Assembly: GCA_031404635.1 (NCBI GenBank)
Contig: JANNHY010000119.1
Location: forward strand, 1 to 50,092
Source of the DNA: Ilumatobacteraceae bacterium
Lineage (GTDB): Bacteria; Actinomycetota; Acidimicrobiia; Acidimicrobiales; Ilumatobacteraceae
Direction: 5' to 3'
Length of the DNA stretch: 50,092 bases
A program made the translations under genes and the position numbers. The notes below the pieces were generated by a model, which saw only the letters and a list, made by a program, of their open reading frames with translations, did no database searches and was not told the origin of the DNA. The first letter of the stretch is position 1, and each line of letters begins with the position of its first letter. Below, piece after piece: positions 284 through 33,703 of the stretch.

Positions 284-1551
284 GCACCAACGCCGAGTTC
301 TTTGAACGAAGCTGCCGGGTCATCCCCGGTGGGGTCAACTCCAGCATCCGCGCATTCAAAGCCGTCGGGGGCACGCCGTACATCGTCGAGCGCGCCGCGG
401 GGCCGTACGTGTGGGATGTCGAGGGCCGCCGCTACATCGACTTGGTGCAGAGCTACGGGGCGATCATCCTCGGCCACGCGCATCCGGCCATCACCGCCGC
501 CGTGACGGCGGCCGCCGCCAACGGCACGTCGTACGGCGCACCCACGCCGGGCGAGATGCTGTTGGCCGAGACGATGACAGAGCGCGTCCACAGCTGCGAG
601 ATGGTGCGGCTGATGAACAGCGGCACCGAGGCGACCAGCACCGCTGTCCGCCTGGCCCGGGGCTTTACCGGGCGCGACCTCTTGGTGATTTTCCACGGCA
701 ACTTTCACGGGGCGACCGACGCATTGTTGGCAGCGGGCGGAAGCGGCGTGGCCACGCTCGGCCTGCCTGGCACGGCTGGTGTACCGGCCAGCGCAGTGGC
801 CAACACGATGGTCGTGCCATACAACGTCGTCCCCCAACTCGACGAGCAGGTCGCCGCCGTCATCGTCGAGCCCGTTGCCGCCAACATGGGAGTGGTCGCC
901 CCTACAGCCGGCTTTCTGCAAGGCCTACGCGCCGAATGCGACCGTGTCGGCGCGTTACTGGTCTTCGACGAGGTCATCACCGGGTTCCGCCTCGGCCACG
1001 GCGGTGCCCAAGCCAAGTACGACGTGCTCCCCGACCTGACCACCTTCGGCAAGGTCATCGGTGGCGGACTGCCCATCGGTGCCGTCGGCGGGCGGGGCGA
1101 GATCATGGAGACGTTGTCGCCGCTCGGGCCGGTGTTCCACGCCGGAACCTTGGCCGGCAATCCGTTGGCGACGGCTGCGGGTCGCGCCGCGCTGCACGAA
1201 CTGACCGACGACGTGTATGTCGAACTCGGGGCCCGTGCCCGCCGACTGGCCTCGCTGTTGGGCGACGCTTGCGCGGCGGCCGGCATCGCTGCCCAGTTCC
1301 CCGTCGTCGGCACCTTGGTCGGCATGTACTTCGGCAGCGGTGATGCTCCGACCAACTTCGTCGAGGCCAAGACCACCGACGAGCAGGTCTACCGCACGTT
1401 CTTTCACGCCATGCTGGCCGAGGGCATCGCCTTGGCGCCGGGCGCTTACGAGGCGCTGTTCGTCGGGCTCGGCCACGAGGACGACGTGCTCGATGCGATC
1501 GGCGGCGCCGCCGCTCGAGCGGCGAGCGCCACCGCCGGCCGGCTCGGCTGA
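280..1551 (+). CDS. hemL: glutamate-1-semialdehyde 2,1-aminomutase
   Basis: The ATG at 280 overlaps the hemB TGA (ATGA). The N-terminus [26 protein letters not shown] is typical. Class-III aminotransferase motifs [16 protein letters not shown] and [11 protein letters not shown] (PLP Lys) are present. The track ORF start at 172 is an upstream extension. Confidence 0.95.
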
Positions 1552-4451: not shown

Positions 4452-5105
4452 GAAGACCTCCTCGCCCGTACCGAATTCTTCGCCGATGCGCCGCACGAGG
4501 TGCTGGCCCCGATCGCTGGCGCCGGTCACGAGCAGCATCTGATTCGTGGCGACGTGCTGTTCCACGAAGGCGACATCGCCGAATCCCTGCATCTTGTGCT
4601 GCGCGGCCGCTTGGCGATCGCCATCGCCAACCCGATCGATCACCGCGAGACCGTCGTCGCCCTGATGGAGCCCGGCGACCTGCTCGGCGAGATGGCCATG
4701 CTCGACGGCGGTCCACGGTCGGCGATGGCGCGGGCGCTCGAACCTTCCGCCGTCTTGACCATCCCATTCGAACCGGTGATGGAAGCTTTCCGCAGCGACC
4801 CGAAGCTGTTGTGGGGCGTTACCCGCCTGCTCGCCCAACGCCTCAGGGTCGCCGACGAGGCCCTCGCCGACAGCGTGTTCCTCGATGTCACCGGTCGAAC
4901 GGCGAAGCGACTGCTCGAACTGTCAGAGGGCGTCGACGACTTCATTCTCCCGGTCACGCAGGAGGAGTTGGCCGGCATGGTCGGCGCCTCACGCGAGCGG
5001 GTCAACAAGGCGATCGCCAGCTTCATCCGCCTCGGCTGGATCGACCAGCACGAGCGCAAATACACGATCCTCAAACGCGACAGTCTCGACATCCGGGCCC
5101 GGTAA
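4443..5105 (+). CDS. crp: Crp/Fnr-family cAMP-receptor-like transcriptional regulator
   Basis: A cNMP-binding domain (GDVLFHEGD...LLGEMAMLDGGPRSA) is followed by a C-terminal HTH, RTAKRLLEL...TQEELAGMVGASRERVNKAIASFIRLGWI. This closely resembles actinobacterial Crp/GlxR. Confidence 0.85.
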   Translation: MAHEDLLARTEFFADAPHEVLAPIAGAGHEQHLIRGDVLFHEGDIAESLHLVLRGRLAIAIANPIDHRETVVALMEPGDLLGEMAMLDGGPRSAMARALEPSAVLTIPFEPVMEAFRSDPKLLWGVTRLLAQRLRVADEALADSVFLDVTGRTAKRLLELSEGVDDFILPVTQEELAGMVGASRERVNKAIASFIRLGWIDQHERKYTILKRDSLDIRAR

Positions 5106-5118
5106 GCAGCCAACAGCC

Positions 5119-5167
5119 CGAAGTATGGCCGCACGCGGCCACGATGGCCGCCTGGCACCATACTTCG
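5119..5167. terminator. hairpin between convergent crp and ABC permease genes (possible bidirectional terminator)
   Basis: Perfect 10-bp arms, cgaagtatgg (5119-5128) and ccatacttcg (5158-5167). The loop contains smaller GC palindromes (ggccgc..gcggcc, ggcc..ggcc). There is no clear U-tract. Confidence 0.4.
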
Positions 5168-7766: not shown

Positions 7767-7804
7767 GACACAAGATCGTAGGCGGTCGCGATTGGTGAAG
7801 CGGG

Positions 7805-10387
7805 TCAGTCGTCGGCGGCAAACTTGGCGCGCATCGGCAACGACGTGCGCCACAGGCCGTCGTAGTCGTGTAGCGCCGCGGCGACCGCTGGCGCGGTGGG
7901 CACGAGCCCGATCTCACCGACACCCTTGATCCCATACGGCGACTTCGGTTGCGGCACCTCGACCAGATGCACCTCGATGGGCGGCACGTCCTTGGCGCGC
8001 AGAATGCCGAGTGAACGCAGCGTCATGTTGGTCGGGAATCCGGTCGCCGGATCCGACGGGAAATCTTCGGTGAGCGCGTAGCCGAGGCCCATGTGAACGC
8101 TGCCTTCGATCTGCCCCTCGCACAGGATTGGGTTGACCGCCTTGCCGACGTCGTGGACGGCGACGACCCGTTCGACGTCGCCGCTGTCGCGATCGATCAC
8201 GACCATCTGCGTCGCATAGCCGAAGGCGGCGTGAATCGTCGGATTGGGATGATCGGGATCGCCGATTTGCTGCGTCCAATCGACGACGTGCTCGCCCACG
8301 TAGTCGATATCGGGTTGGCATCCGCCTGCCAGCGCCGCGGCGCAGGCGTCGCGAACGGACCCGGCGGCCATCAGCGTGCCGCGCGACCCGGTGGTCTGCC
8401 CGAAGCCGAGGTCGCGGGTGGTGTCGACGATCACCTCGATGCGATTGGGGTCGATGCCGAGTTCCTGGGCGGCCACCTGCAACGCCACGGTGTGCACGCC
8501 CTGGCCCATCTCGGTCCAGCCGTGGCGAACCTCGACCACACCATCGGCTCGGAACCTCACCACGGCGCGGCACAGCTCGTGGAAGCCGTTGCCGAGACCG
8601 GAGTTCTTCAACCCGAGACCGACCCCTACGGCCTTGCCGTCGGCACGAGCCGAGTCGTAGAGCGGCTTGATCGTGTCGAGGCACGCCTCGGCGCCGCCGC
8701 AGCCCTCGTCCATGATCTGGCCGGGTCCCCACACCTCGCCGGGGTGGATGACGTTGCGCTTGCGCATTTCCCAACCGTCGATACCGACCATGTCGGCGAG
8801 GCGGTCGATGACACCCTCCATGGCGAACTGCGCCTGGTTGGCCCCGAAGCCGCGGAACGCGCCGCAGATCGGGTTGTTGGTGCGCACCGCAACCGCGTGC
8901 ACGTCGATGGCCGGCACCCGGTACGGCCCGCCGGCGTGGCCAGCGGCGCGCTCCAAAACTTTCATCCCCACGCTGGCGTAGGCGCCGCTGTCGCCGATGG
9001 CGCGGACGCGCAAGGCGGTGAGGTGACCGTCGGTGTCGCAGCCGGCCCAGTATTCGAGGCGGATCGGGTGACGCTTGGCGTGGATCAGCAGGCTCTCTTC
9101 ACGCGACAGCGTGCACTTCACCGGGCGATCGAGCAGCCATGCGGCGAGCGAGGCGTGAGTCTGATTGCTCATGTCTTCCTTGCCACCGAACGCCCCACCA
9201 TTTGACACCAGCGTCACCGTGATCGCGTCGTTGCCGACGGCGAGCATGCGGGCGATGTCGTCGCGGTCGTCCCACACACCCTGGCCGCCCGAATAGACCT
9301 GCAGATGGCGCACACCGTCGATCATCGACGGCACGGCCAGCGTGCTCTCGGGTTCGAGGAAGGCCTGCTCGACGCGTTGCGTATGGAAGACCTCGTGCAC
9401 CGTATGGGCGGCGGCGGCGAGACCACCGTCGACGTCGCCGCGCGAATACTCGCTGACACTGAGCACGTTGTCGCTGGTGCCCCACACCGCAACGGGCGAG
9501 CCTTCGGTCAACGCGGCGTCGGCATCGGTGACAAGTTGCAGCACGTCGTAGCCCACCTCGACCAACGCCGCGGCGTCGCGCGCCTGCTGGCGGGTCTCGG
9601 CCACCACAATCGCCAGAACGTCGCCGGCGTAACTGGTGCGTCCACCGATCGGGATCATCACCGGCCAGTCCTTGTAGATGATGCCCATCCGCAGTTCACC
9701 GGGGATGTCGGCAGCGGTCAATACGGCGATGACACCCGGCGCGGCCGCCGCCGCTGTGGTGTCGATCGACAAGATGTCGGCGCGGGCGTGGGCGGTGAGG
9801 TGCAAGGCGGCGTGCACCATGGCTGGTACGCGCATGTCGTCGATGTAGTCACGATCGCCGAGGGTCAGTTCGCCGGCTTCATACCTCGCGCCGGACCCGC
9901 CGACCGTAGCTGCCAAAGCCGGCTCGAACTGCTTGCCCTTGGCAACGGCGTCGATGGCTTCGAGGATCTTGACGTATCCCGTGCAGCGGCACAGGTGGGC
10001 GCCAAGATGTCGTGCCATATCAGCGGGCTGCAGGTCGGCACCTTTCTTGTCGATCTGGGCCTTGGCGCGCATGACGATTCCCGGGATGCAGAACCCGCAC
10101 TGCAGGCCTCCGCATGCGGCGAACGCATCGGCAAAGGCCGTGCGCTCCTCTGCGGCGACGCCTTCCAATGTGGTGACCGCCCGGCCGGCAACCTTGGCCA
10201 GCGACACTTGGCAGCTGACCACGGCCTTGCCGTCGAGGTGCACCGTGCAACATCCGCATTGTCCTGACGGCGAACAACCGTCTTTCGGAGACGTCACGTC
10301 GAGTTCCTCACGGAGCGCGGCAAGCAGGTGCGGATGATCGCCGTGAACTGTCACTGGCTTGCCGTTGAGTTGGAATTCGGTGCTCAC
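7805..10387 (-). CDS. molybdopterin-dependent aldehyde oxidoreductase/xanthine dehydrogenase-family protein with fused N-terminal 2x[2Fe-2S] domain (MOP-like, no FAD domain)
   Basis: The N-terminus carries CSPSGQCGCCTV and CGGLQCGFCIPG...CRCTGY cluster motifs. A large Mo-cofactor domain follows (GGAFGGKE, FRGFGANQ, GQGVHT, VGEIG). GTG start at 10387. Confidence 0.85.
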   Translation of the reverse strand: MSTEFQLNGKPVTVHGDHPHLLAALREELDVTSPKDGCSPSGQCGCCTVHLDGKAVVSCQVSLAKVAGRAVTTLEGVAAEERTAFADAFAACGGLQCGFCIPGIVMRAKAQIDKKGADLQPADMARHLGAHLCRCTGYVKILEAIDAVAKGKQFEPALAATVGGSGARYEAGELTLGDRDYIDDMRVPAMVHAALHLTAHARADILSIDTTAAAAAPGVIAVLTAADIPGELRMGIIYKDWPVMIPIGGRTSYAGDVLAIVVAETRQQARDAAALVEVGYDVLQLVTDADAALTEGSPVAVWGTSDNVLSVSEYSRGDVDGGLAAAAHTVHEVFHTQRVEQAFLEPESTLAVPSMIDGVRHLQVYSGGQGVWDDRDDIARMLAVGNDAITVTLVSNGGAFGGKEDMSNQTHASLAAWLLDRPVKCTLSREESLLIHAKRHPIRLEYWAGCDTDGHLTALRVRAIGDSGAYASVGMKVLERAAGHAGGPYRVPAIDVHAVAVRTNNPICGAFRGFGANQAQFAMEGVIDRLADMVGIDGWEMRKRNVIHPGEVWGPGQIMDEGCGGAEACLDTIKPLYDSARADGKAVGVGLGLKNSGLGNGFHELCRAVVRFRADGVVEVRHGWTEMGQGVHTVALQVAAQELGIDPNRIEVIVDTTRDLGFGQTTGSRGTLMAAGSVRDACAAALAGGCQPDIDYVGEHVVDWTQQIGDPDHPNPTIHAAFGYATQMVVIDRDSGDVERVVAVHDVGKAVNPILCEGQIEGSVHMGLGYALTEDFPSDPATGFPTNMTLRSLGILRAKDVPPIEVHLVEVPQPKSPYGIKGVGEIGLVPTAPAVAAALHDYDGLWRTSLPMRAKFAADD

Positions 10388-10394
10388 GTTTTAC

Positions 10395-10404
10395 ATATTG
10401 TCAA
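10395..10404 (-). promoter_or_regulatory. possible extended -10 element (TGaCAATAT) 7 nt upstream of the GTG of the Mo-enzyme gene (leaderless candidate)
   Basis: The minus strand reads ccTTGACAATATGTAAAACGTG. This AT-rich island fills the 13-nt gap and overlaps the TGA of the upstream ATPase gene. Confidence 0.25.
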
Positions 10405-13400
10405 GGTTTGCCCGGAATTGAAACCGGCACGGTCAATCCGCCGACCGAATCGACCGCCACTTGAGCCAGGACGGTCTCACCATCGCTGATCAGCCACACC
10501 AGCCCTGGTCGCGCCGCGATCGGCATCCGCGGCAGCACGGCACCGAGCAGGTCGCCGTCGAGATCGCTCGCTGCAGTGGTGACGATGCCGAGCCGGCTGC
10601 GCCGCACCACACCGGTCCAGTGTCCGTAGCTCTGGCGCAACGAGTCCGGTTTGCCGGTCGCAACGATCATCAGCCCGTGGCGACGCGATGCCGCCAGCGA
10701 GGCGAGCGCACCGCCGACATCGTCGACCAATTCGCCGTCGTCGATGGCAATCAGCACCCGGCCGTCGGGTGGAACGTCGTCTATGATCTCAGCGAGCGAG
10801 CGATAACGGTGCTCGGCATCGAGCGCGGTGCGACGTGGCGCGACGATTCGCCACCAGCCGTTCGGGTAGGCGTCGAGCCATGCCCGCACCATCCGTTGCA
10901 GCGCCGTGCTGCGCCCCGACCGTGGCGGCCCGACGATCAACACGTGCTCGCCGTCGGGCACGTCGACGTTGCAGACCCGGCCGTCGCCGAAGCGCAGGCC
11001 CAGCGGGAGCAACGAGTCGTCACCGCACCCGACCCCGGGCGGAAGACTGCCGGCGTCGACGTTTGCCGGCAGGCACTCGACCGGCGGCGGAATCGTTCCG
11101 TCGACGCAGGCCGGCAGCGGCAACGGGCCGACCATCAACTGGGCCTCGAGGCCACTCGCGGCCACGACGATCCGCCCTTGTCGTGGCCCGGGGACATCGG
11201 CCGCGGCTATCCCCAGCCCAGCAGCATCGAGCGGATCGGTGAGGTGGAAGATCCACCGTTGTGCACAGCGGGCCAACGTGCTCGATGGAATGGCGGCGAC
11301 GCGATCGAACGCACAGACCACGACGACGTCGTGCGCCGCACCGAGAGCGATGATCATGTCGACCATCTCGAATTCGGCGGCGGTTTCGAGATCGTCGAGC
11401 GCGCTGCGTACTGCGTCGAGCCCGTCGACCAGGACGACAATCGGGTACCGCGGCACGGTCGGATCGGCGATCCGCTGACCGACCTCGTCGGCCAACCGGT
11501 TGATCAACCTGATCAAGCGCTCACGTTCGTGCAGGCGCACGAGACCCCCACATCGCGGCGAGCGTTCGAACGTGGCCAGAGCCTGATCGCCGCGACCGTC
11601 GATCACATACAAATGACACCCGCTGCCGTCGGTCGCGGCAACTGTGCCGAGCAGCATCAGCGTCGACGTCACCCCGCTGCCCGTGGCGCCGACAAGCAGC
11701 AGATGGCCCTCGGCGCGGTTCCATCGCAGCGGCAACACGCGTTGCCCGTCGGGATCGTCGACCAGGCCGACGATCCCCTGGGCGACCAGTGCTTCGTCCG
11801 CCGGAAGGTGTGCGGGAAGAGGAGCCGGCCAAGGCGAATCCGGCGGTCGAGCACCGACCAATACCGCTGCATCACGAACCGCACCGACCAGCAGATCGAG
11901 TTCGCTGCCGCCTTGCCCCAACGGCGTCGTGCACCGCGCCGTCTGGAACGTGAGCAACTCGTCGGGGCCGAGTCGCATCACGGCACGACCGGCCAGACCG
12001 CGCGGGATCGCTGCCGGCGCACTGTCGCCAACGACGTCGATGGCGTCGGCGCTGTCGTGCAACCGCAGGGAGACTCTCAGGTTGGTGTTGGCCCGGATGT
12101 CGTCGCTGATCACACCGCTCGGGCGTTGGGTGGCCAGGATCAGGTGCACCCCGAGGCTGCGGCCGCGCTGGGCGATCCCGACAAGGGCGTGCAAAAAGTC
12201 GGGCTGCTCGCTGACCAAAGCGGCAAACTCATCGATCACCACCACCAGGCGGGGCAGCAACTCGTTAGGGGCCAGGCGACGGTAGGAAGCAAGGTCGGCG
12301 GCGCCGGCTGCGCGCAACAGTTGTTCACGGCGGCGCAACTCGGCGTGCAGACAGCGCAATGCGCGGTTGGCGAGATGTTGGTCGAGATCGGTCACGACGC
12401 CAACCACGTGCGGTAGCTGGGCGCAGGCGTCGAACGTCGAGCCACCCTTGTAGTCGATGAGAACGAACGTGAGTTGGTCGGGACTCGATGCAGCCGCTAA
12501 TCCTACGACCAGGCTGCGCAGCAGTTCGCTCTTGCCGGCACCGGTGGTTCCGGCCATCAGCGCGTGGGGGCCGTCGCGGTCGAGATCGACATCGACCACG
12601 CCATCGCCGGCGACACCGATCACGGTGCGCGGTGGCGGGTCGACGCCGCCGGCTACCCACGAGGCCGCAATCGCTGCCGGTTCGTGCGACAGCAACAACG
12701 ACAGCATGGTGACGTCGTGTGGGATGCTGCCTGCGGCGCCCAGTGGATCCTCGGGATCGAGCAACCCGCTCAAACAGCCGGCCAACCTCGCCGCGCTCCG
12801 CTCGCTGATCCCGAAGCAGCGGGCCTGAACCGGCAACGATGCAATCGCTGCGTCGGCGTGCCACCTGGCCTTCATCGGACCGCACAGATCGAGCAGGGAC
12901 GAACACACATGCGGAATCCCGCCGTCGGCGTCGATCAGAACGATCAGGGCTACTGAGCGACCAGATGTGACCACCCGGCGCAACGAGCTTGTACGCGCCG
13001 CCAACAGCTCCGGTGCGTCGGTGATCATCACGAGATGGGGGTGTGGTGCGACGTCGGATTCGGCTACGGCCTCGAGCAGCTCGGCCTCGGTGACCACGGC
13101 GTCAAGACCCGACGTCGTTGTGGCGTGTGGCAATCGCTCCAGCCACCGCCACCGCGCCGGTTGGTGGGTGACCACGACGAAGCGCACGTCGGCCGGCCCG
13201 CAGTTGGCGGCGAGTTGCATCACGATCGAGCGGGTCGCCGCGCGTGCCCGATCGGCGTCGCCGCGTACCCCCAGTCGGCATGCCGCGCCGATATCGGCCA
13301 CCACGGGCAGGTCGGGGAGCATCGACATCGTGGCGAGGCTCGCCGCCGCCCGGTTCACACCTGAGCCGTCGTCGAGTCGAGGAGCCCAGGCGACCCTCCC

Positions 13401-16067: not shown

Positions 16068-16643
16068 ATGACCGTTGCAGCTCGACTCCTTCGACACGCC
16101 CGACACAGCACACTGCTCAGCCAGTCCGCGCTCGCGGCCAAGGTCGGCTTTCGGCAATCGAACGTCTCCCGCCTCGAATCGGAACGACGCGATGTGAACG
16201 TCGACACCCTCGATCGCTTGTTGCGAGCGACCGGGTTTCGCCTCGCCGCGCTCCCGACACAGAGCGCAGCGGTCGCCGAAGCCGCAGACTCCACGGCTCG
16301 CTTTGTCGCCGCCGACAACGAGGAGGGTGCTTATCGAGCCGTCATCCAATTGGCAGACGACCTTGCTCGCGAACATGGTGCAGAGCGAGTCGCGTTGACG
16401 GTCGCGCCCCCGCCGCCCACGGGCGATGAGCGCTTCGATGCATTCATCGCCGGCGTAGTCGATTTTCGACTGGCAGACGAGAATCTGCCTCGCCCGAAGT
16501 GGCTGACCGACAGCCCTCGCCTCGCCTCGCCGTGGTTCGTTGACCGTTGGTCGATCGGCAACCCGAGCGTCATCGAGGCCACACCGCCCCAACTGCGAAC
16601 TCGTGGAGTGATTATCGACGCTGCAGAACTGGCCAGCGTATGA
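16068..16643 (+). CDS. XRE-family HTH transcriptional regulator (putative antitoxin) with uncharacterised C-terminal domain
   Basis: Strong SD (ctAGGAGGtgg) 6 nt before the ATG. The N-terminal HTH is LLSQSALAAKVGFRQSNVSRLESERRDVNVDTLDRLL. The stop overlaps the start of the next gene (ATGA). Confidence 0.85.
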   Translation: MTVAARLLRHARHSTLLSQSALAAKVGFRQSNVSRLESERRDVNVDTLDRLLRATGFRLAALPTQSAAVAEAADSTARFVAADNEEGAYRAVIQLADDLAREHGAERVALTVAPPPPTGDERFDAFIAGVVDFRLADENLPRPKWLTDSPRLASPWFVDRWSIGNPSVIEATPPQLRTRGVIIDAAELASV

Positions 16644-17188
16644 CTCTGGATCGTGACGACATCGTGGCAGGACTCGGCGAGCTTGCCGGCGAGTTGGATG
16701 CTGTCGGGCTAGAGCTCACGATTCATGTGGTCGGCGGCGCTGCAATCGCATTGGAGTACAACACCGATCGCCAAGCAACCAGCGACATCGACGCCTGGGT
16801 CAACGCCCGACCAGTGGTCCGCGAACAGGTTGTTGATGTGGTGAAACAGATCGCCATCCGTCGACGCTGGCCCGACGATTGGCTCAACGAGAAGGCCGTG
16901 ATGTTCATCCCAGAAGGCGTCGGCGCCGGCCCCGAGGATTGGCGGCCGACACTCGAGGTTGGCAAGGTACGCGTCTTCGTCGCGCAGCCAATGGTGCTGT
17001 TGGCGATGAAGCTCCGCGCAGGTCGAGGAAGACGAGACCTCCCCGATCTCGAACCGCTCCTCGCTGCCTCGGGGCTTCACACGATTGAGGACGTCCAAGA
17101 AACCTTCGATGGCTACTACCCGCACGACGACATGAGGCCGCTCTCTCGTCACTGGCTCGAACAGAACCTGCCACATCGCACCCCATGA
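16640..17188 (+). CDS. minimal nucleotidyltransferase-fold protein (AbiEii/MenT-like or DUF-type NTase; putative toxin)
   Basis: The motif VVGGAAIALEYNTDRQATSDIDAWV fits the GG-x(n)-D-x-D nucleotidyltransferase signature. The protein is 182 aa and translationally coupled to the XRE gene. Confidence 0.6.
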   Translation: MTLDRDDIVAGLGELAGELDAVGLELTIHVVGGAAIALEYNTDRQATSDIDAWVNARPVVREQVVDVVKQIAIRRRWPDDWLNEKAVMFIPEGVGAGPEDWRPTLEVGKVRVFVAQPMVLLAMKLRAGRGRRDLPDLEPLLAASGLHTIEDVQETFDGYYPHDDMRPLSRHWLEQNLPHRTP

Positions 17189-17217
17189 CCCGGCCGCCTG
17201 TCACCTCGGATGATTCG

Positions 17218-17289
17218 TGCCCCCCCGGGGTCTCGAACCCCGAACCAACGGATTAAAAGTCCGCTGCTCTACCGTTGAGCTAGAGGGGC
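17218..17289 (-). tRNA. tRNA-Lys (anticodon UUU)
   Basis: The reverse complement is GCCCCTC TA GCTC AACGGTA GAGC A GCGGA CTTTTAA TCCGT TGGTT CGGGG TTCGAGA CCCCG GGGGGGC A. It folds into a full cloverleaf with a 7-bp acceptor stem (one G-U) and a TTCGAGA T-loop. CCA is not encoded. Confidence 0.93.
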
Positions 17290-17378
17290 CAACGGGCCGC
17301 CCAATACTACGGTGAACGATGGCCCCCGCGTTTGTCTGCGGCATCGGGCGAGCAAGGCGCGGCCTGACCCGCCCGCGG

Positions 17379-17864
17379 TCACCGGGCGGTGAGGTGCGGG
17401 TGGTCGTCGGGGAAAACGGGGGAGCGCTGCTTCACGGCGAGCGCTCGGACCGCCAGCTCGACCAGTTCGTCGGCACCGAGCGCGGCCCGCATGCGAGCGA
17501 ACACCGTCTCTTCCTCGATCAGGAAGTGGGCCTTGATGTCGAGCAGCAACGCGCTGCCACGCTTGGTGAACCCGAAACCGGCGGGGGCGAGGCTGCGCAT
17601 CTCGGCGAGAAGCCCGTTCACCTCTTCGTGCTCGCCCATCCGGCGGGCGAGGGTGCTGTCACCGGCCGCCTCGAAAGCGGCCTGGAACGCTGGGAACACC
17701 ACCTGTTGCTCGGCCGCCTCATGCGCGGCCAGCTCCTCGGCGATGCGCAGGAACAGGCGGCGAATCTCGGCGGGATCATCTGTAGCGTCGAGCTGCTCGA
17801 CGAGTTCGCCGATCATCCGGTGGTCGCGTTCCAGGAGTTCGATGACGTCGATCTGGTGGGTCAT
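17379..17864 (-). CDS. hemerythrin domain-containing protein
   Basis: The ATG at 17864 is preceded by AGGAAAGGA. His/Glu-rich four-helix motifs are LLERDHRMIGEL, AAHEAAEQQV, GEHEEVNGLL and KAHFLIEEE. Confidence 0.8.
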   Translation of the reverse strand: MTHQIDVIELLERDHRMIGELVEQLDATDDPAEIRRLFLRIAEELAAHEAAEQQVVFPAFQAAFEAAGDSTLARRMGEHEEVNGLLAEMRSLAPAGFGFTKRGSALLLDIKAHFLIEEETVFARMRAALGADELVELAVRALAVKQRSPVFPDDHPHLTAR

Positions 17865-20430: not shown

Positions 20431-23148
20431 ATGGGGATCGGTCGGCGCGGGACTGTGGTTGTGGGCCGCGGTACTGAGTTGGCGCTGCTCAGCGGTGTGC
20501 TGCGCAACCTCGATCGCGGCACCGGGGTAACGATCAGGTTGCGCGGCGACGTGGGAATCGGCAAGACCACCATGCTCGACTGGGTGACCGTGCAGGCTCG
20601 CGCTGCTGTTGTTCGCCTAACCGGATCGGAGTCCGAGGCAGAGTTGGCCTATTCGGGGCTGGCCTCGATGCTCAAGGCATTCGAGGTACTTCACGTTGCG
20701 GTGCCCAGCCCGCACGCTCGGGTGCTGGCCGGGGCGATCGGCCGCGGGTCGACACAGGGCCAACTGGCAGTCGGCGGCGCCACCCTCGCCGCGATCGCAG
20801 CTGCCGGCGAGCAGGCGCCACTCGTGTTACTGATCGACGATGCCCAGTGGCTGGATGAGCCATCCTCCTCGGCGCTGGCGTTTGCCCTACGACGGCTGCC
20901 CGACGAGCCGGTGGTGGCGGTCATCACCGAGCGCTCCGACATGCCGTCGAAGTTCGACAGTGCCGGCTTCGAAACCATCGAGCTCAAGGGTCTCAACGTC
21001 GACGATGCGATTGCGATGTTGGGCACCGAAACGGACCGCGCCGTCGCTCAGCGATGTGTCGACGCTGCGGGAGGCAGCCCGTTGGCGCTGGGTGAGCTGG
21101 CAAGTCTTCTGGATCGCGATCAGCTCGCCGGGCGCTGCCCGCTACCGAACGACCTGCCTGTCGGCAACGGGCTGATCCGCTCGTTCGTCGATCGCATCAT
21201 TGCCCTCGACCCGAGCGCCCAGAGAGGCTTGGGCGTGGTCGCAGCTGCGCTCGACCCAACGGCCGCCGACATCCACGCCGCCGCTGATCGAATTGGGGCC
21301 ACCGTCGCCGATCTCAGCGCTGGCGAGGCGGCCGGTGTTATCAGCGTGTCGTCGGAGCACATCGAACTGACCCATCCGCTGATGCGTTCGGCGATACGCG
21401 ACGCGATCGGTCCGCAAGCGATGCGCGACGCACACGCTGCCTTGGCCGAGGTGGTAGGTGACGCCGACAAGCGAGCGTGGCACCTGGCATCGGCGACGGC
21501 GGGCCCCGACGCAGTCGTTGCCGATGCCCTCGAACAGGTCGCAACCGTCGCCGACCGCGGTGGGGCCTGGTCGGCTGCGGCCGTCACATGGGAACGGGCG
21601 GCGGCATTGTCGACGGATCTGGCAAAGCGTCATCGCCGCCTGCTAGCCGCTGGCGCGTCGCGTTGGAACGCCTCTGACCCGTACGGGGCGATCGCGGTGC
21701 TCGACGAGGTGGTGGCGTTGTCTGACGACGTGTTGGTTCGATCCGATGCCATCAGCATTCGCTCCGATGGGATTGCCTGGATGATCGATCAGGACCGCGG
21801 TATCGCCGAGCTGGCCGACGAGGCCCACCGGATGTCCACCATCGATCCGTCGCGTTCCATCGGCCTGTTCATCCGCGCCGCGTTGCACGGCGGCCTCTCC
21901 GGCCGACCGGTTGATTGTCAACGGCACGCTCAGTCAGCTGTCGAGGTGGCGCACCAACTCGGGCTACCGATGATCGTCGCCGCCAAGGCGGTCCGGGCGA
22001 TGTCATCGCAGCGGCTCGGCGACCGCGACGGCGCCGAGGCCGATTTCGACGCGGCCCGCGTCCTCGGCTCGCTGCCGGTCGAGATGCTCGGTGCCCAGCT
22101 ACTTCCTCTTCTCCAAGCACTGGCCGTCGCCCTATTGACTCAGGAACGGTGGACCGAGGCCAACGAGATACTCGACCTGTCGATGACTGCCGCCCGACGT
22201 CACGGGCTGGCTTCGGTGCTCGGCTTCAGCGGCGCGCTGCAGGGTGAGCTGTATCTCCGCAGCGGGCGGTTGACCGACGCTGTGCTGTCCTCCCTGCTCG
22301 ACGTCGATCTCAACGACACTCCCGACTTGCCAACGGCGTCGTTCGGTCAAGCCGTTCTGTCGAGAGTCGAGGCTGTACTCGGGCGCACGCAGAGCGCGCG
22401 CATGCATGCAGAATCGGCCATTGCTCGCGCCCGACGAGTCGGGCTGGGGGTACTCGAGACGTGGGCGCTGTCAGCCCTCGGTCACGTCGCCCTCACCACC
22501 GGCAGGTATCTCGAAGCAGCCGAGCACTTCCGCCGCGTCCACCGCCTGCACGCCGGCGTGCTCGATGCCGGTGACCTGTGGTATCAGGGCGATCTGCTCG
22601 AAGCGTTGTTCGCCATCGGCGCTGTCGACGAGGCGGCCGCTGTGGTCGCCGATGTCGCCGAGAAGGCCGAGCGAAGCGGGTCGAAGTGGGGCGCAGCGGT
22701 CGTTCTGCGTGGGCAGGGAATGCTGCACGGCCGCCCTGCCGATCTGCACGACTCCGCCGAGCAACTTGCCGCGCTGGGTGCACCGTGCGAGCAAGCCCGG
22801 AGCTTGTTGCTACTCGGCGAGCGCCACGGCGATCACCAGGCATCGAGCGCCGCTTTGCGCATCTTCGAGCGAATCGGCGCCGACCCGTGGGCCGCCCAGG
22901 CCAGGCGCATCGCCGGGCCAGTTGCCCCGACCAGTTCGTCGCTGGCCTCGCGGTTGACCAACGACGAGTTGCGTGTCGCCGTATCGATCGCCCGCGGTCG
23001 CAGCATCCGGCAAGTAGCCGACGAGCTGTACCTCAGCCCGAAGACGGTCGACGCACATCTCCACGCAATCCTGCCCAAGCTCGGGGTGCGCGATCGGGCC
23101 GAACTGACGATGCTGGTCAACCGCGACATCGAGCAGGCGCCGGTCTGA
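20431..23148 (+). CDS. LAL-type (large ATP-binding LuxR family) transcriptional regulator
   Basis: N-terminal P-loop GDVGIGKTT and Walker-B-like LLIDDAQWLD, a long helical/TPR-like middle, and a C-terminal LuxR HTH, LTNDELRVAVSIARGRSIRQVADELYLSPKTVDAHLHAILPKLGV. Confidence 0.9.
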   Translation: MGIGRRGTVVVGRGTELALLSGVLRNLDRGTGVTIRLRGDVGIGKTTMLDWVTVQARAAVVRLTGSESEAELAYSGLASMLKAFEVLHVAVPSPHARVLAGAIGRGSTQGQLAVGGATLAAIAAAGEQAPLVLLIDDAQWLDEPSSSALAFALRRLPDEPVVAVITERSDMPSKFDSAGFETIELKGLNVDDAIAMLGTETDRAVAQRCVDAAGGSPLALGELASLLDRDQLAGRCPLPNDLPVGNGLIRSFVDRIIALDPSAQRGLGVVAAALDPTAADIHAAADRIGATVADLSAGEAAGVISVSSEHIELTHPLMRSAIRDAIGPQAMRDAHAALAEVVGDADKRAWHLASATAGPDAVVADALEQVATVADRGGAWSAAAVTWERAAALSTDLAKRHRRLLAAGASRWNASDPYGAIAVLDEVVALSDDVLVRSDAISIRSDGIAWMIDQDRGIAELADEAHRMSTIDPSRSIGLFIRAALHGGLSGRPVDCQRHAQSAVEVAHQLGLPMIVAAKAVRAMSSQRLGDRDGAEADFDAARVLGSLPVEMLGAQLLPLLQALAVALLTQERWTEANEILDLSMTAARRHGLASVLGFSGALQGELYLRSGRLTDAVLSSLLDVDLNDTPDLPTASFGQAVLSRVEAVLGRTQSARMHAESAIARARRVGLGVLETWALSALGHVALTTGRYLEAAEHFRRVHRLHAGVLDAGDLWYQGDLLEALFAIGAVDEAAAVVADVAEKAERSGSKWGAAVVLRGQGMLHGRPADLHDSAEQLAALGAPCEQARSLLLLGERHGDHQASSAALRIFERIGADPWAAQARRIAGPVAPTSSSLASRLTNDELRVAVSIARGRSIRQVADELYLSPKTVDAHLHAILPKLGVRDRAELTMLVNRDIEQAPV

Positions 23149-23202
23149 GTAGAGTCCGCACCCCTAGGCCGCCTTGGTCGCAATTCCGGCGGTCTACCCA
23201 CT

Positions 23203-23304
23203 CGATGAGGGATGAGCCGCGCGGCGACGCACATTTCTCATCGCGGAATGCACCGAGCGATCGCGATGAGAAATGTGCGCTGCGGAACGGCTCATCGCTC
23301 ATCG
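23203..23304. repeat. nested-palindrome GATGAG-rich repeat element, copy 1
   Basis: Outer arms are cgatgagggatgagccg (23203-23219) and cggctcatcgctcatcg (23288-23304), with one mismatch. Inner arms gcacatttctcatcgcg (23229-23245) and cgcgatgagaaatgtgc (23262-23278) are perfect. A second copy lies at 32622-32728. Confidence 0.85.
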
Positions 23305-23344
23305 CAGGGGTTTGCGAGCGGCGGCCAGATCCCGCCAGAACGGG

Positions 23345-24490
23345 CTAAACGAGCTCGCTCAGCAGGACCAATCCGTCGAACACGTCGGTGAACCGAGTCG
23401 TCAGTGGGGAGCACCCGATACGGACGATGTCGGGGTCGCGGAAGTCGGTGACCACGCCTCTACCGGCGAGTTCGGCGACGAGGCGCTTGGCACTCGGGTG
23501 GTGCACCGCCAGGTGACCACCCCGGCAAGCCGGGTCGCGAGGGGTTGACGAGTTCAGGCCCAGCTGGTCGCACAACCCCAGACCGAACCCGGTCAGCGCT
23601 TGCGCCTTGGCCGCGATCGCCTCGATTCCCACCTCGACCGCCAAGGCGATTCCTTCCTCGGCGGCAGCGAGGGCGAGAATCGGCGGCGTGCCCAGCAGCA
23701 ACCGGCGAATGTCTGGCTGCGGCGCGAACGTCGGCCCCATCGCGAACTGATCGGTCTGGGCGAACCATCCCCAGATCGGCTGAGGCAGCGTCGGCTGCAA
23801 GTCAGTGGCCACATAGCTGAAAGCCGGCGCCCCCGGCCCGCCGTTGAGGTACTTGTAGGTACAGCCGACGGCCAGTTGCACGCCGGCAGCGCCGAGGTTG
23901 ATCGCCAGCAGCCCGGCAGCGTGCGAGAGATCCCACAGCACGATCGCACCGGCCGCGCCCGCCCGGGCGGTCTCGCCGTTAACGTCGGCCAGTTCCGAAG
24001 TGCGGTAGTCAACGACCGAACGGACGCTCACGGCAACGTCGTCGAGACGATCGAAGTGGTCGCGCACCTGCAAACCACGCGCCGCAGCGATGCCGTCGAC
24101 CACGTAGCGATCCGTCGGGAACTCGGCGGAGCCGATGGCGATCACCCCGCGACCGGGTCGCAACGCGCACGCCGCATCGAGGAGTTGGTAGAGGTTGACG
24201 GTCGTCGAGTCGTGAACGACCACCTCTCCGGGTGCGGCGCCGATCAGCGGTGCCAGGCGGTCGCCAACCCGTTGAGGAAGATCGACCCAGTGTTCCCACG
24301 AACGGCTCAAACCAGATGCCCACTCGTCACGCACCACACGCTCGAGCCGTTCAATGGTGCGCAGCGGCGTCATCCCGAGCGAATTGCCGTCGAGATAGAC
24401 CAAAGAGCGGTCGGCGATCAAGAACTGGTCACGCCGGCTCGACAATGGGTCGGAATCGTCGAGCGCCACCGCGTCGTCACGGGTCGGCAT
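23345..24490 (-). CDS. kynU: kynureninase
   Basis: Translation has YLDGNSLGMTP, DLSHAAG and GCTYKYLNGGPGAPAF (PLP Lys). The ATG at 24490 is preferred over the TTG at 24502, which would overlap the ligase gene. Confidence 0.85.
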   Translation of the reverse strand: MPTRDDAVALDDSDPLSSRRDQFLIADRSLVYLDGNSLGMTPLRTIERLERVVRDEWASGLSRSWEHWVDLPQRVGDRLAPLIGAAPGEVVVHDSTTVNLYQLLDAACALRPGRGVIAIGSAEFPTDRYVVDGIAAARGLQVRDHFDRLDDVAVSVRSVVDYRTSELADVNGETARAGAAGAIVLWDLSHAAGLLAINLGAAGVQLAVGCTYKYLNGGPGAPAFSYVATDLQPTLPQPIWGWFAQTDQFAMGPTFAPQPDIRRLLLGTPPILALAAAEEGIALAVEVGIEAIAAKAQALTGFGLGLCDQLGLNSSTPRDPACRGGHLAVHHPSAKRLVAELAGRGVVTDFRDPDIVRIGCSPLTTRFTDVFDGLVLLSELV

Positions 24491-24494
24491 GGGC

Positions 24495-25385
24495 CTATTC
24501 AACCAACGCGATGAAACTGGAATGACGCACGTAACCGTCGTTGGTGAATTCGGTGATTTCGACCGTGGCCCGCAACTCGGGGCGCACCCAGATCGCCTCC
24601 CGCGAGTACTCGCGAGGCGGTAGCGACAGGAACGGGCAGGTGTCGCTGCGAAGACTGGTCAGCAAGGCCGACAAGTCGCGCAGTGTGCGCTCGTTGAATC
24701 CTGTTCCGACTCCACCGGCAAACCGCAGACCGTCGACGTCGGGCACGCCGACCAACAGCGCGCCGAACGTGGTGCTGCGATTGCCACTGCCGAGCTTGTA
24801 ACCGCCGATGATCATCTCGACGGTGCGCCTGTTCTTCACTTTCCGCCAGCTCGGCGTCCGCTTACCCGGCACATAGACGCTGCCGAGCAGCTTGGCCATG
24901 ACACCTTCCAGACCGCGCTCGACGGTTGCCGTCAGCAGCGCCGCGCCATCGCCGATCCGGTGCGCCGGCACCATCCAGTTCGGCCCCGGTTCCAGCAGGC
25001 CACCCAGCAACTCGCGGCGCTTCTCGTACGGCAGCGCAATCGTGTCGTGGCCGCCGATCGACAGCACATCGAAGGCGTAGAACGCAACCTGGGTGGCGTG
25101 TTGCTGCATCAGGTCGAACCTCGGCCGGCCCTCGGCGTCGAGTACCACCAGCTCACCGTCGATGATCGCCGACGGGGCGTTGACCGCATCGGCGAAGTCG
25201 GCCAATTCGGGATACTTGGCGGTCACGTCGAGCAGATTGCTGCTCTGCCACCGGCTTCGGCCGGCGGCGACGAACGCCAACGTGCGGTAGCCATCCCACT
25301 TGATCTCGTAGGCCCAGTTCTTGTCGTCTGGAGGCAGGGTGCCGATGGCGGCTTTCATCGGCGCGACCGGAAAGCGCAAGGTCAT
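24495..25385 (-). CDS. ATP-dependent DNA ligase, stand-alone LigD-ligase-domain type
   Basis: Motif I is YEIKWDGYR (adenylation Lys), followed by IIDGELVV, AFDVL, EGVMAK and SWRKVK. The protein is 296 aa with no polymerase or phosphoesterase domains. The ATG overlaps the upstream stop (ATGA). Confidence 0.85.
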   Translation of the reverse strand: MTLRFPVAPMKAAIGTLPPDDKNWAYEIKWDGYRTLAFVAAGRSRWQSSNLLDVTAKYPELADFADAVNAPSAIIDGELVVLDAEGRPRFDLMQQHATQVAFYAFDVLSIGGHDTIALPYEKRRELLGGLLEPGPNWMVPAHRIGDGAALLTATVERGLEGVMAKLLGSVYVPGKRTPSWRKVKNRRTVEMIIGGYKLGSGNRSTTFGALLVGVPDVDGLRFAGGVGTGFNERTLRDLSALLTSLRSDTCPFLSLPPREYSREAIWVRPELRATVEITEFTNDGYVRHSSFIALVE

Positions 25386-31528: not shown

Positions 31529-31890
31529 GTGGCCTGCCCCGGCATCCGTTCGTGTTGGCGGTGAGGCCGATCGTCGAAGCCTTGGGCGCGTCGTTGGTAC
31601 CCGCCGACGAACGCGAGCCTGGCGACATTCCGTTGCGTTGGGAAGGCTCGATCATCGCCGCGGTTCGCATGGCGCCGCTACACGGGGCCCTTGACCGGCT
31701 GATCGAGACCGTCGAGCGCGAGTTCGGGGCCCCACTACCGTCGCTGGCCCGTGAAGACAAGCAGCGGGCCATCAGGCTGCTCGACGAGCGCGGCGCGTTC
31801 ATCTTGCGGCGTGCCGTCGAAGACGTTGCCGACGCGATGGGCGTCAGCCGAATCACCGTCTACAACTACCTCAACGCCCTGCACCGATGA
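31525..31890 (+). CDS. HTH domain-containing regulator (YheO-like C-terminal HTH)
   Basis: The C-terminus is KQRAIRLLDERGAFILRRAVEDVADAMGVSRITVYNYLNAL. Confidence 0.55.
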   Translation: MSGLPRHPFVLAVRPIVEALGASLVPADEREPGDIPLRWEGSIIAAVRMAPLHGALDRLIETVEREFGAPLPSLAREDKQRAIRLLDERGAFILRRAVEDVADAMGVSRITVYNYLNALHR

Positions 31891-31924
31891 GCAGCCCGAT
31901 CGTCGTGATCGTCGTCAACCAGCG

Positions 31925-32614
31925 ATGAGCGCATTCGACGTGATCGGCTTCGACGCCGACGACACCCTGTGGCACAGCGAAGACGGTTTCCGCGCCAACG
32001 AAGAGCGCTTCGTCGAATTGATCGCTCCCTATTCCCCCGAGGGCATCGGCGTGAAGGCGGCACTGACGGCGACGGAACGCAAGAACCTCGCTGCATTCGG
32101 CTACGGCGTCAAGTCGTTCGGTCTGTCGATGGTCGAGGCCGCCGTCACCATCAGCGGCGGCCGGGTTCCGTCCACGGTGGTCGCCGAATTGATCGAGATG
32201 GTCAGAGCGCAGTTGGTCGACCCAGTGCGCTTGCTGGATCACGTCCCCGAGGTTCTGGCCGAGGTTGGCGCGACGCGGCGGCTGATCCTGATCACGAAAG
32301 GTGACCTGATCCACCAGACCCACAAGGTCACAACCAGCGGGCTGGCGCACCATTTCGAACACGTCGAGATCGTCTTGGAGAAGGATCCCGAGACCTACGC
32401 CGGCGTGCTGTCACGGCTGGGAATCGACCCGACCCGCTTCTGCATGGTCGGCAACAGCGTGCGCAGCGATATCCTGCCGGTGCTCACCCTCGGCGGGCAC
32501 GGCGTGCACGTCCCCTACCCGATCCTGTGGGACTTGGAACACGTCGACCACGACGAACACTTCGTCGAGCTCAAATCGCTCGCCGACCTGCCCGGCTGGC
32601 TCGGCGGCCGCTGA
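31925..32614 (+). CDS. HAD-superfamily hydrolase
   Basis: Start at the ATG at 31925. Motif I is IGFDADDTLW, followed by ILITKGD and MVGNSVRSDI. The upstream part of the track ORF overlaps the preceding gene. Confidence 0.85.
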   Translation: MSAFDVIGFDADDTLWHSEDGFRANEERFVELIAPYSPEGIGVKAALTATERKNLAAFGYGVKSFGLSMVEAAVTISGGRVPSTVVAELIEMVRAQLVDPVRLLDHVPEVLAEVGATRRLILITKGDLIHQTHKVTTSGLAHHFEHVEIVLEKDPETYAGVLSRLGIDPTRFCMVGNSVRSDILPVLTLGGHGVHVPYPILWDLEHVDHDEHFVELKSLADLPGWLGGR

Positions 32615-32621
32615 TCCACGC

Positions 32622-32728
32622 CGCGATGAGAGATGAGCCGTCCTGCAGCGCATATCTCTCATCGCGTCCGAGGCGGCTCCTTGCGCGATGAGAAGTGTGC
32701 GCCGCCGAGCGGCTCATCTCTCATCGCG
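32622..32728. repeat. nested-palindrome GATGAG-rich repeat element, copy 2
   Basis: Outer arms cgcgatgagagatgagccg (32622-32640) and cggctcatctctcatcgcg (32710-32728) are perfect. Inner arms gcgcatatctctcatcgcg (32648-32666) and gcgcgatgagaagtgtgcgc (32683-32702) are imperfect. The architecture matches 23203-23304. Confidence 0.85.
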
Positions 32729-32767
32729 AGCGTTGGGGCGGGACAGCGGCTGGGGGCGGGTCAGCAG

Positions 32768-33703
32768 TTACAGCCGGCGCAGCGCGACCTCGGTGACGCG
32801 GTGGTCGGGCCCCTTGCGCATCAGCAGGGCCGCTCTCGACTTGGTCGGGGCGATGTTCTCGCGCAGGTTCTTGCCGTTGATCTCACGCCAGATGGATTTG
32901 GCGACCTCGACCGCTTCATCGTCCGACAGGTCGGCATAGTGGCGAAAGAAGCTCTCGGGATTCCGGAACACGGTGTCGCGCAGTTTCATGAATCGGCGCA
33001 CATACCAATCCTCGATGTGCGCCTCTTCGGCATCGATGTAGATGCTGAAATCGAAGTAGTCGCTGACGAACTCGGTGGCGAGCTCGGCAGGCCCGCCGGT
33101 CTGCAGCACATTGAGGCCTTCGATGATGGCGATGTCGGGCTGGCTGACATCGATCATCTCGCCATCGAGGATGTCGTAGACGACATGGCTGTACACCGGC
33201 GCTTTGGCGGTGGCGGCGCCGCTCTTAACTTCGCGGAGGAACTGCAGCAACCGTCGGGTGTCGTAGCTCTCCGGGAACCCCTTACGGTTGGCGATGCCGA
33301 GCCCGTCGAGCACCTCGTTCGGATAGAGGAACCCGTCGGTCGTCACCAGATCTACCTTGGGATGGTCGGGCCAGCGGGCCAGCAACGCTTGCAGGATGCG
33401 GGCGAAGGTGCTCTTGCCCACGGCCACGCTGCCGGCGACCCCGATGATGTACGGCACCTTCGGTGAGGTGGTCCCGAGGAACTCGCCGGAGACCTTGTGC
33501 AGCTGCTGCGTTGCCGAGACATACAGGTTCAACAGCCTGGTCATTGGCAGGTAGACGGTGGCGACCTCGTCGAGTTCGATGTTCTCGTTGATGCCCCGCA
33601 GCGATTCGAGATCGTGCTCGCTCAGCGTCAGCGGTGTTGCCGCGCGCAGCTCGGCCCACTCGTCGCGCCCAAAGGTGAGATAGCGGGCTGCCGCGTCGGT
33701 CAC
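32768..33703 (-). CDS. coaA: type I pantothenate kinase
   Basis: P-loop [17 protein letters not shown], then [13 protein letters not shown] and RKGFPESYD. 311 aa. GTG start. Confidence 0.93.

Follow-up and report, generated by a model that had tools for sequence, protein, structure and literature searches.

Dispersed 45-nt hairpins bracketing the gene of a predicted DNA-binding nuclease suggest a REP/REPIN-like system in Acidimicrobiia run by an enzyme unrelated to REP transposases

The stretch of DNA analysed here, referred to as the window, comprises 50,092 nucleotides of an Ilumatobacteraceae bacterium (Actinomycetota; Acidimicrobiia; contig JANNHY010000119.1 of assembly GCA_031404635.1) and holds two palindromes built around the hexamer GATGAG and its complement CTCATC, each lying between two convergent genes. 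The features at the two sites are given below, where loose-end borders are the positions at which the loose ends of other metagenome copies fall.

20431–23148, plus strand: LAL-type LuxR regulator (Pfam AAA_16, TPR, GerE); stop 54 nt before copy 1
23201–23245, plus strand: copy 1 unit a; A arm with two GATGAG, 11-nt centre, B' arm with one CTCATC; loose ends start at 23203 and end at 23244
23246–23261, no strand: copy 1 spacer; 16 nt, sequence unconserved, length alone kept family-wide (15–17 nt)
23262–23306, minus strand: copy 1 unit b; the 45-nt unit inverted; profile match; loose-end borders 23262 and 23305
23345–24502, minus strand: kynureninase-like gene (Pfam KYNU_C, Aminotran_5); convergent; stop 40 nt after copy 1
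31751–32614, plus strand: HAD-family hydrolase (Pfam); start at 31751 or 31925; stop 7 nt before copy 2
32622–32666, plus strand: copy 2 unit a; profile match; loose-end borders 32623 and 32665/6
32667–32683, no strand: copy 2 spacer; 17 nt, sequence unconserved
32684–32728, minus strand: copy 2 unit b; inverted; profile match; loose-end borders 32684 and 32727/8
32768–33703, minus strand: PRK/uridine-kinase family gene (Pfam); convergent; stop 39 nt after copy 2

The initial annotation had described copy 1 as a nested palindrome (outer arms with one mismatch, perfect inner arms and a 16-nt loop) with six hexamers, and had placed a second copy of like architecture at 32622–32728, also between convergent genes. 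This description was reproduced: the outer arms of copy 1 (23203–23219, CGATGAGGGATGAGCCG, and 23288–23304) pair with a single mismatch, its inner arms (23229–23245 and 23262–23278) are perfectly complementary around a central loop of 16 nt, and copy 2 follows the same plan with a central loop of 17 nt, both copies carrying six GATGAG/CTCATC hexamers in the order ++-+--. The names LuxR-LAL and kynureninase given to the genes flanking copy 1 are supported by their Pfam domains, and the distances to their stop codons, claimed as 55 and 41 nt, measure 54 and 40 nt. Each site (23201–23306; 32622–32728) presents four GATGAG-bearing arms of ~17 nt and, since a single 17-nt motif underlies all four, the repeat is best taken as a 45-nt imperfect hairpin consisting of an A arm, an 11-nt centre and a B' arm. 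In these terms, each 'nested palindrome' is two 45-nt units in inverted orientation, 16–17 nt apart. The arm pattern has seven matches in the window against 0.83 expected, a number reached in none of 100 shuffles, and a profile search of the 50 kb recovers only these two copies, with unit a of copy 1 scoring 50.4 (nhmmer) against the seed and 43.5 against a profile of 109 units. Folding of the RNA, proposed earlier as a check, predicts very stable structures on both strands (-78 to -88 kcal/mol; z-scores from -9.7 to -11.2).

Each unit supplies an ATG, plus TGA in two frames per strand. A 277-aa open reading frame at 32633–33466 (plus strand), whose ATG lies inside a GATGAG of copy 2 and which overlaps the PRK-family gene on the opposite strand, is almost certainly spurious. 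Elsewhere in the window, an unrelated hairpin at 5119–5167 (23 + 23 nt, 83% complementary, 3-nt loop) sits between two minus-strand genes and may be a terminator-like stem. A tRNA gene at 17218–17289 (minus strand, 68 bits) is the sole match of the window in an Rfam scan at gathering scores, and a further scan by E-value gave only sub-threshold matches to miRNA hairpins at the element.

Species-representative genomes were scanned with a pattern corresponding to half of the element, yielding more than 114 stretches which, among the matches listed, fall mostly in metagenome-assembled genomes (MAGs) of Ilumatobacteraceae and other Acidimicrobiia. Among the matches listed in a profile search of ~70 of these loci, there are 78 elements, comprising 44 singles, 24 inverted doublets and 9 direct doublets, and the unit starts of doublets keep a fixed register of 60–62 nt. 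The consensus over 109 units is cGCGATGAGaGATGAGC-N11-GC[A/T]CATCTCTCATCGCg, with flanks and 15–17-nt spacers unconserved. The window also matches runs of a freshwater-sediment metagenome (X1 and X2). In X2, the window population has a depth of ~54, while the units reach 850–970, and ~2000 at 80% likeness, that is, 16–37 times the single-copy depth, and the unit borders form the exact start or end of many contigs from elsewhere. The units are thus multi-copy in the source metagenome, with at least tens of copies. The notion that only these two copies might exist anywhere, raised with the initial annotation, is clearly contradicted by the abundance of the unit both in relatives and in the source metagenome, and the statement that the palindrome belongs to no described family has held: there is no match in Rfam, and an incomplete search of the literature found no account of such repeats in Acidimicrobiia, of this architecture, or of the nuclease association described below. 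In practical terms, the units account for breaks in assembly and for spikes in depth seen in MAGs of Ilumatobacteraceae, and they are useful as strain markers.

Across the family, 82.5% of stem cells pair, compared with 25–51% in slid controls, and both the variable N of GAGNGAT and the apical pairs show double (compensatory) changes. GATGAG is invariant, and the stems are therefore conserved in sequence and not in pairing alone, while a conserved A.A mismatch makes each unit directional. Stems are no more alike within a doublet than between doublets (0.863 versus 0.855, p 0.15). Loops are weakly more alike within doublets (0.56 versus 0.44, p 0.0015), a difference that is confounded by genome of origin and is for that reason given no weight in favour of a replicative hairpin of the REPIN type.

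Matches to GATGAG in Thermoanaerobaculia were set apart as a different, heptamer repeat that lies outside the 45-nt unit family. In one such MAG (L011, 5687–5939), a (GATGAGA)x27 heptamer microsatellite is followed by an inverted (CTCATCT)x7, and the Acidobacteriota MAGs L011, L012, L023, L027, L064 and L065 carry this different GATGAG-based repeat together with hairpins that have three hexamers per arm. No homologue of the nuclease gene introduced below was seen in the chunks of these six MAGs.

The elements that lie clear of gene calls are distributed over 20 convergent, 22 tandem and 2 divergent regions, against a background in the same loci of 111, 260 and 102, and are usually positioned 2–25 nt past a stop codon. 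Comparison of orthologous sites reveals both gain and loss. In the syntenic locus L086 (~80% identity), a 106-nt doublet at 4556–4661 lies at the place corresponding to a 23-nt convergent spacer at 7781–7805 of the window, which is thus an empty site for the family, and relatives present at low depth in X1/X2 read straight across both window sites, with no element there. In addition, several elements occupy a shared site in MAGs with flanks of 80–97% identity. In two sets of orthologous sites the number of units differs, with one in L057 and two in L026 and L051, and with one in L046 and L079 and two in L108; in both sets the extra unit and its spacer measure ~62 nt and sit beside the old unit. 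From these sites, doublets appear to arise when a new unit is set down at a measured distance (15–17 nt) from one already present. No target-site duplication or precise junction was read between filled and empty sites, which are 10–20% diverged. The family is therefore dispersed, multi-copy, located downstream of stop codons and gained and lost at orthologous sites, and it is the 'REP/BIME- or MITE-like mobile palindrome' among the options of the initial annotation that is favoured by the many copies, the extragenic 3'-end contexts and the filled and empty sites.

The position of the units raises the question of their effect on transcripts. Transcripts of the convergent genes would likely end in very stable hairpins (~-80 kcal/mol), which probably protect the 3' end or block read-through rather than serving as canonical terminators. 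A bidirectional terminator had been another of the earlier options, and its canonical intrinsic form is absent because the stem is followed by no U-tract, the longest run of T being TTT; a terminator scan likewise returned no terminator-like site at either copy on either strand, and a promoter scan of both copies no promoter-like site. If the hairpins served primarily at the RNA level, as bidirectional terminators or mRNA 3'-end stabilisers under selection to which the nuclease link is incidental, one could readily account for their strong bias to the few nucleotides past stop codons and to convergent pairs, their near-absence from divergent regions, their very stable folds on both strands and the covariation that maintains the stem. 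The same 3'-end bias is, however, equally expected from purifying selection against insertions into promoters, and such a role sits poorly with the missing U-tract and the empty terminator scan, with stems conserved in sequence and not merely in pairing, with the polarity conferred by the A.A mismatch, with near-identical copies at unrelated loci that show presence/absence polymorphism, and with a flanking link to one gene family that is highly non-random. We consider a primarily RNA-level function quite improbable.

The architecture of the elements also invites comparison with classical MITEs, the deletion derivatives of DDE insertion sequences with shared terminal inverted repeats, or with REPINs mobilised by a Y1 transposase (RAYT). 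The ~105-bp inverted-repeat plan, dispersal and presence/absence polymorphism fit such a reading, the arms can act as inverted repeats, and an inverted doublet fits the definition of a REPIN (PMC3337134). Against it, 45-nt singles outnumber doublets, the doublet spacers are unrelated in sequence, and doublets are seen to arise by addition of a unit beside an old one. Furthermore, no parent insertion sequence with a transposase was found in the sampled loci: a phmmer search with an IS200 TnpA query (validated by Pfam) gave no match to a Y1 transposase among 6830 open reading frames (~0.9 Mb), and a RayT query, which itself lacks a Pfam Y1_Tnp match, gave none in the same reading frames. The RAYT or IS200-like transposase that the initial annotation had proposed looking for was thus not found, in a test that is weak, as Pfam validated just the IS200 query, and such an enzyme may lie elsewhere in these genomes. 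The only gene that is recurrently flanked by units (four of ~70 loci), and the only one of the flanked genes to be characterised, lies outside the known transposase families and encodes an AbiEi-wHTH protein with a Vsr-type nuclease domain instead. We regard mobilisation as MITEs or by a RAYT as very improbable.

At several loci two units lie ~1 kb apart, and in four MAGs (L021, L024, L036 and L096) the interval encodes homologous proteins of ~315 aa that are 40–70% identical. The layout of these four cassettes consists of one or two plus-oriented units, a leader of ~70–100 nt, the reading frame, and a minus-oriented unit abutting or overlapping the stop. As the gene is present in only 4 of ~70 loci, most units lie far from it, and it was not found in the 50-kb window. 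Residues ~5–180 of the protein match AbiEi models (PADLOC, E-values to 1e-20), and the C-terminus matches the Vsr-type REase_MTES_1575/DUF559 group (Pfam MTES_1575 in 34 and DUF559 in 2 of 47 members). An AF2 model (pLDDT 90.2) agrees with this division: in Foldseek, the N-terminal ~200 aa retrieve AbiEi (6y8q) and Rv2827c (1zel), with an E-value of 2.6e-7, and the C-terminal ~100 aa retrieve the catalytic domain of I-Bth0305I (3r3p, TMt 0.78), Vsr (1vsr, rmsd 2.8 Å; 1cw0) and NGO0050 (3hrl). Seven residues (D238, E249, D251, H256, D265, R268 and D269) are invariant. On this modelling the protein is predicted to be an AbiEi-type wHTH module fused to a Vsr/DUF559-type PD-(D/E)xK nuclease. It has no Pfam match to Y1_Tnp, and searches with its sequence gave no match among PDB sequences, in NCBIfam or, by tblastn, in a plasmid collection. 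No AbiEii nucleotidyltransferase is present among the gene neighbours in L115–L117 and L198–L202. The protein family spans 264 clusters at 50% identity with E<=1e-30 and ~7000 with E<=1e-10, and homologues are usually annotated as 'very-short-patch-repair endonuclease' or 'hypothetical'. Four other unit-flanked reading frames (L010, L029, L045 and L052) are without similarity to the nuclease or to each other.

The association between gene and repeat was examined in 80 homologue loci taken from metagenomes (36–87% identity), of which 62 had enough flanking sequence. A repeat shared by both flanks was found for 54 of these 62 homologues; among 137 control genes from these loci there were 2 such cases, one of them a paralogue of the nuclease gene. 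Two or three units on a side are frequent; the 3' hairpin starts between -18 and +28 nt from the stop codon, and the 5' hairpin ends a median of 120 nt upstream of the protein match, with the leader in between. The hairpin type follows the protein lineage (GATGAGAGATGAGC, GATGAGCGATGAGCGCGCC, GATGAGCGAAC..., TGTGAGCGGTGAGC, GGTGAGAGGTGA, CCGAGTGGGTACTCGCA... and others), the hexamer being GATGAG in some lineages and GGTGAG, TGTGAG or CGAGTG elsewhere, and protein identity correlates with repeat similarity (Mantel test, rho 0.56, p 0.001). In line with this, the variable centres of dispersed units in three MAGs are 0.74–0.78 identical to those of the units flanking the gene of the same genome, compared with 0.48–0.68 for those of other genomes.

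Conserved gene order allows the repeat to be followed at a fixed locus. The gene lies between a DEAD helicase and an AMP-binding gene in L021, L198 and L199, and between an epimerase and a DUF455 gene in L115 and L116. At the same orthologous locus the hairpins carry GATGAG in L198 and GGTGAG/CTCACC in L199, with the partner arm changed to match. L117 encodes two paralogues 7 kb apart (10001–10933 and 16518–17453), and the hairpins that flank them are of two unrelated types, one for each paralogue (GCGATGAGTT... and CGTGAACTTCTGCACGGA...). In the source metagenome, a 1165-nt contig of X2 that is ~80% identical to the gene has a depth of 55.3, equal to that of the window population, which is consistent with a single-copy gene, against ~2000 for the units. 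Hairpin copies of other types lie far from the gene at only two loci (L175 and L178), flanks being short, so that genome-wide dispersal is established for the GATGAG family alone; short homologue contigs ended at hairpins, as expected of assembly breaks, in only 4 of 25 cases. The units thus bracket a low-copy wHTH-Vsr nuclease gene and co-vary with its lineage.

Together, these data suggest a repeat system of the REP/REPIN kind in which the enzyme is unrelated to the known REP transposases. The hairpins of Ilumatobacteraceae and other Acidimicrobiia probably form a REP/REPIN-like family of 45-nt units whose presumed driver is a cognate predicted nuclease outside the RAYTs. That the nuclease mobilises the units we infer from the association. 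In the mechanism that we propose, the protein would recognise a hairpin that carries the hexamer (GATGAG here), the DNA probably being extruded or single-stranded, and would nick at a measured distance from it, leading to copying or insertion of units in trans; it would in this way play the role that RAYTs play for REPs and REPINs, by means of an unrelated enzyme. The hexamers are probably the recognition motif of the AbiEi-wHTH/Vsr protein, and in this sense the protein-binding array, the remaining option of the initial annotation, may be partly right. A wider proposal, which we put forward tentatively and hold to be possible rather than probable, is that these proteins form a second, independently evolved REP-associated class, RAYT analogues that both create and maintain hairpin repeats in Actinomycetota, with a hexamer code that co-evolves with the protein and new units inserted ~17 nt from a bound hairpin.

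The RNA-level and MITE/RAYT explanations fit the data less well than such a nuclease-driven family. In the main rival explanation, the nuclease gene would be carried by the repeats as a parasite or passenger: a cassette resembling a homing endonuclease or an IS would have inserted into the spacer of an inverted doublet, and the units would be spread by a RAYT, another enzyme or recombination. Insertion of a cassette into a '+-' doublet would yield exactly the observed layout, one orthologous site holds the full cassette in L123 and only a solo unit in L072, and the C-terminal domain resembles the catalytic domain of a homing endonuclease (3r3p). Insertion sequences that target REPs are also known, ISPpu9 being an example (PMC8450116). 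An efficient homing element would, however, fill many doublets, whereas the gene has single-copy depth and the units number at least tens. Moreover, the gene stays at a fixed locus across diverged MAGs (L021/L198/L199 and L115/L116) while the hairpins change, two or three units per flank are common, unlike a split doublet, and no transposase was seen in the sampled DNA. We regard a passenger gene as unlikely. The converse derivation, in which the doublets would be internal-deletion derivatives of the gene cassette, was set aside, as the spacers are unrelated and units are seen to be added singly.

The closest parallels for a nuclease-tied hairpin family are the REP/REPIN-RAYT systems of Proteobacteria (Nunvar 2010; Bertels & Rainey 2011, PMC3116915, PMC3337134; Bertels 2017, PMC5581495). 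Both consist of short imperfect palindromes that are extragenic and present in many copies, both occur as singlets and as inverted doublets that fold into one long hairpin (as in both window copies and 24 of 78 elements), and in both, cognate repeats flank a gene of low copy number that is passed on largely vertically. As in those systems, each gene lineage or paralogue has its own repeat type, such as the two paralogues and two hairpin types of L117, and orthologous sites retain units but also gain and lose them. The differences are that the flanked enzyme is an AbiEi-wHTH protein with a Vsr/DUF559-type nuclease domain and not an HUH/Y1 tyrosine transposase, that the host belongs to the Actinomycetota (Acidimicrobiia), that the unit is longer (45 nt), with heptad-spaced GATGAG hexamers and no 5' tetranucleotide of the GT[AG]G type, and that neighbouring units keep a strict 60–62-nt register with unconserved spacers. 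Escherichia coli BIMEs likewise show alternating orientation, fixed spacing and a position after gene ends. BIME linkers are, however, conserved motifs, some of which bind IHF, whereas the spacers here are unconserved; direct pairs occur here too (9 of 34), and clusters rarely exceed two or three units.

Other known systems resemble the gene cassette in part. As in IS200/IS605 elements, the gene is bounded by asymmetric, subterminal imperfect hairpins and not by simple terminal inverted repeats, but there is no TnpA(Y1) or TnpB here, and the gene is single-copy and syntenic, not multi-copy. The I-Bth0305I homing endonucleases and Vsr/DUF559 proteins (NGO0050) share the C-terminal fold of ~100 residues and its conserved acidic and His residues; the present gene differs in lacking an intron or intein context, in its AbiEi-like N-terminus and in the dispersed hairpin repeats that flank it. 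The antitoxins of AbiE type IV toxin–antitoxin systems (AbiEi of Streptococcus agalactiae, 6y8q; Rv2827c of Mycobacterium tuberculosis, 1zel) correspond to the N-terminal ~180–200 residues. AbiEi proteins bind inverted repeats in their own promoters, upstream of their own gene, in parallel with the 5' hairpins here, and these could therefore be mere operators. The present system differs from AbiEi antitoxins in the absence of an AbiEii neighbour and in the nuclease fusion, and its binding-site-like repeats also occur 3' of the gene and genome-wide.

REPs and REPINs are the best-studied long-lived, vertically inherited 'replicators' of bacteria and have so far been tied to one enzyme family, the RAYTs, mainly in Proteobacteria. 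Should the reading as a nuclease-driven family be correct, a REP-like life-style would have evolved more than once, here in uncultured freshwater and soil Actinomycetota with an unrelated nuclease, and a function would be assigned to a sizeable orphan protein family. As the hexamer and the protein co-vary, the two would also offer a tractable protein–DNA recognition pair.

Several smaller features of the gene and its flanks were recorded. In L021 (MAG MFD04651.bin.2.133; 334–1366, minus strand) the nuclease gene is split over two frames (689–1366 and 334–786) and is either a pseudogene or carries a long-read indel error. The TGA stop of the gene lies inside a GATGAG of the 3' unit in L096 and L021, and inside the degenerate hexamer CATGAG in L036. 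A conserved motif, GGCTTCCCC, occurs ~40–60 nt upstream of the nuclease start codon in L021, L096, L115, L116, L198, L199 and L200, whose hairpins differ, and may represent a promoter or operator, or else a site of cleavage. Finally, in the CGAGTG lineage (L182, L183, L185, L189, L191, L193 and L194) the gene flanks carry, besides the hairpin, arrays of short GTGCGAGTG-like repeats ~20 nt apart, which resemble multiple binding sites.
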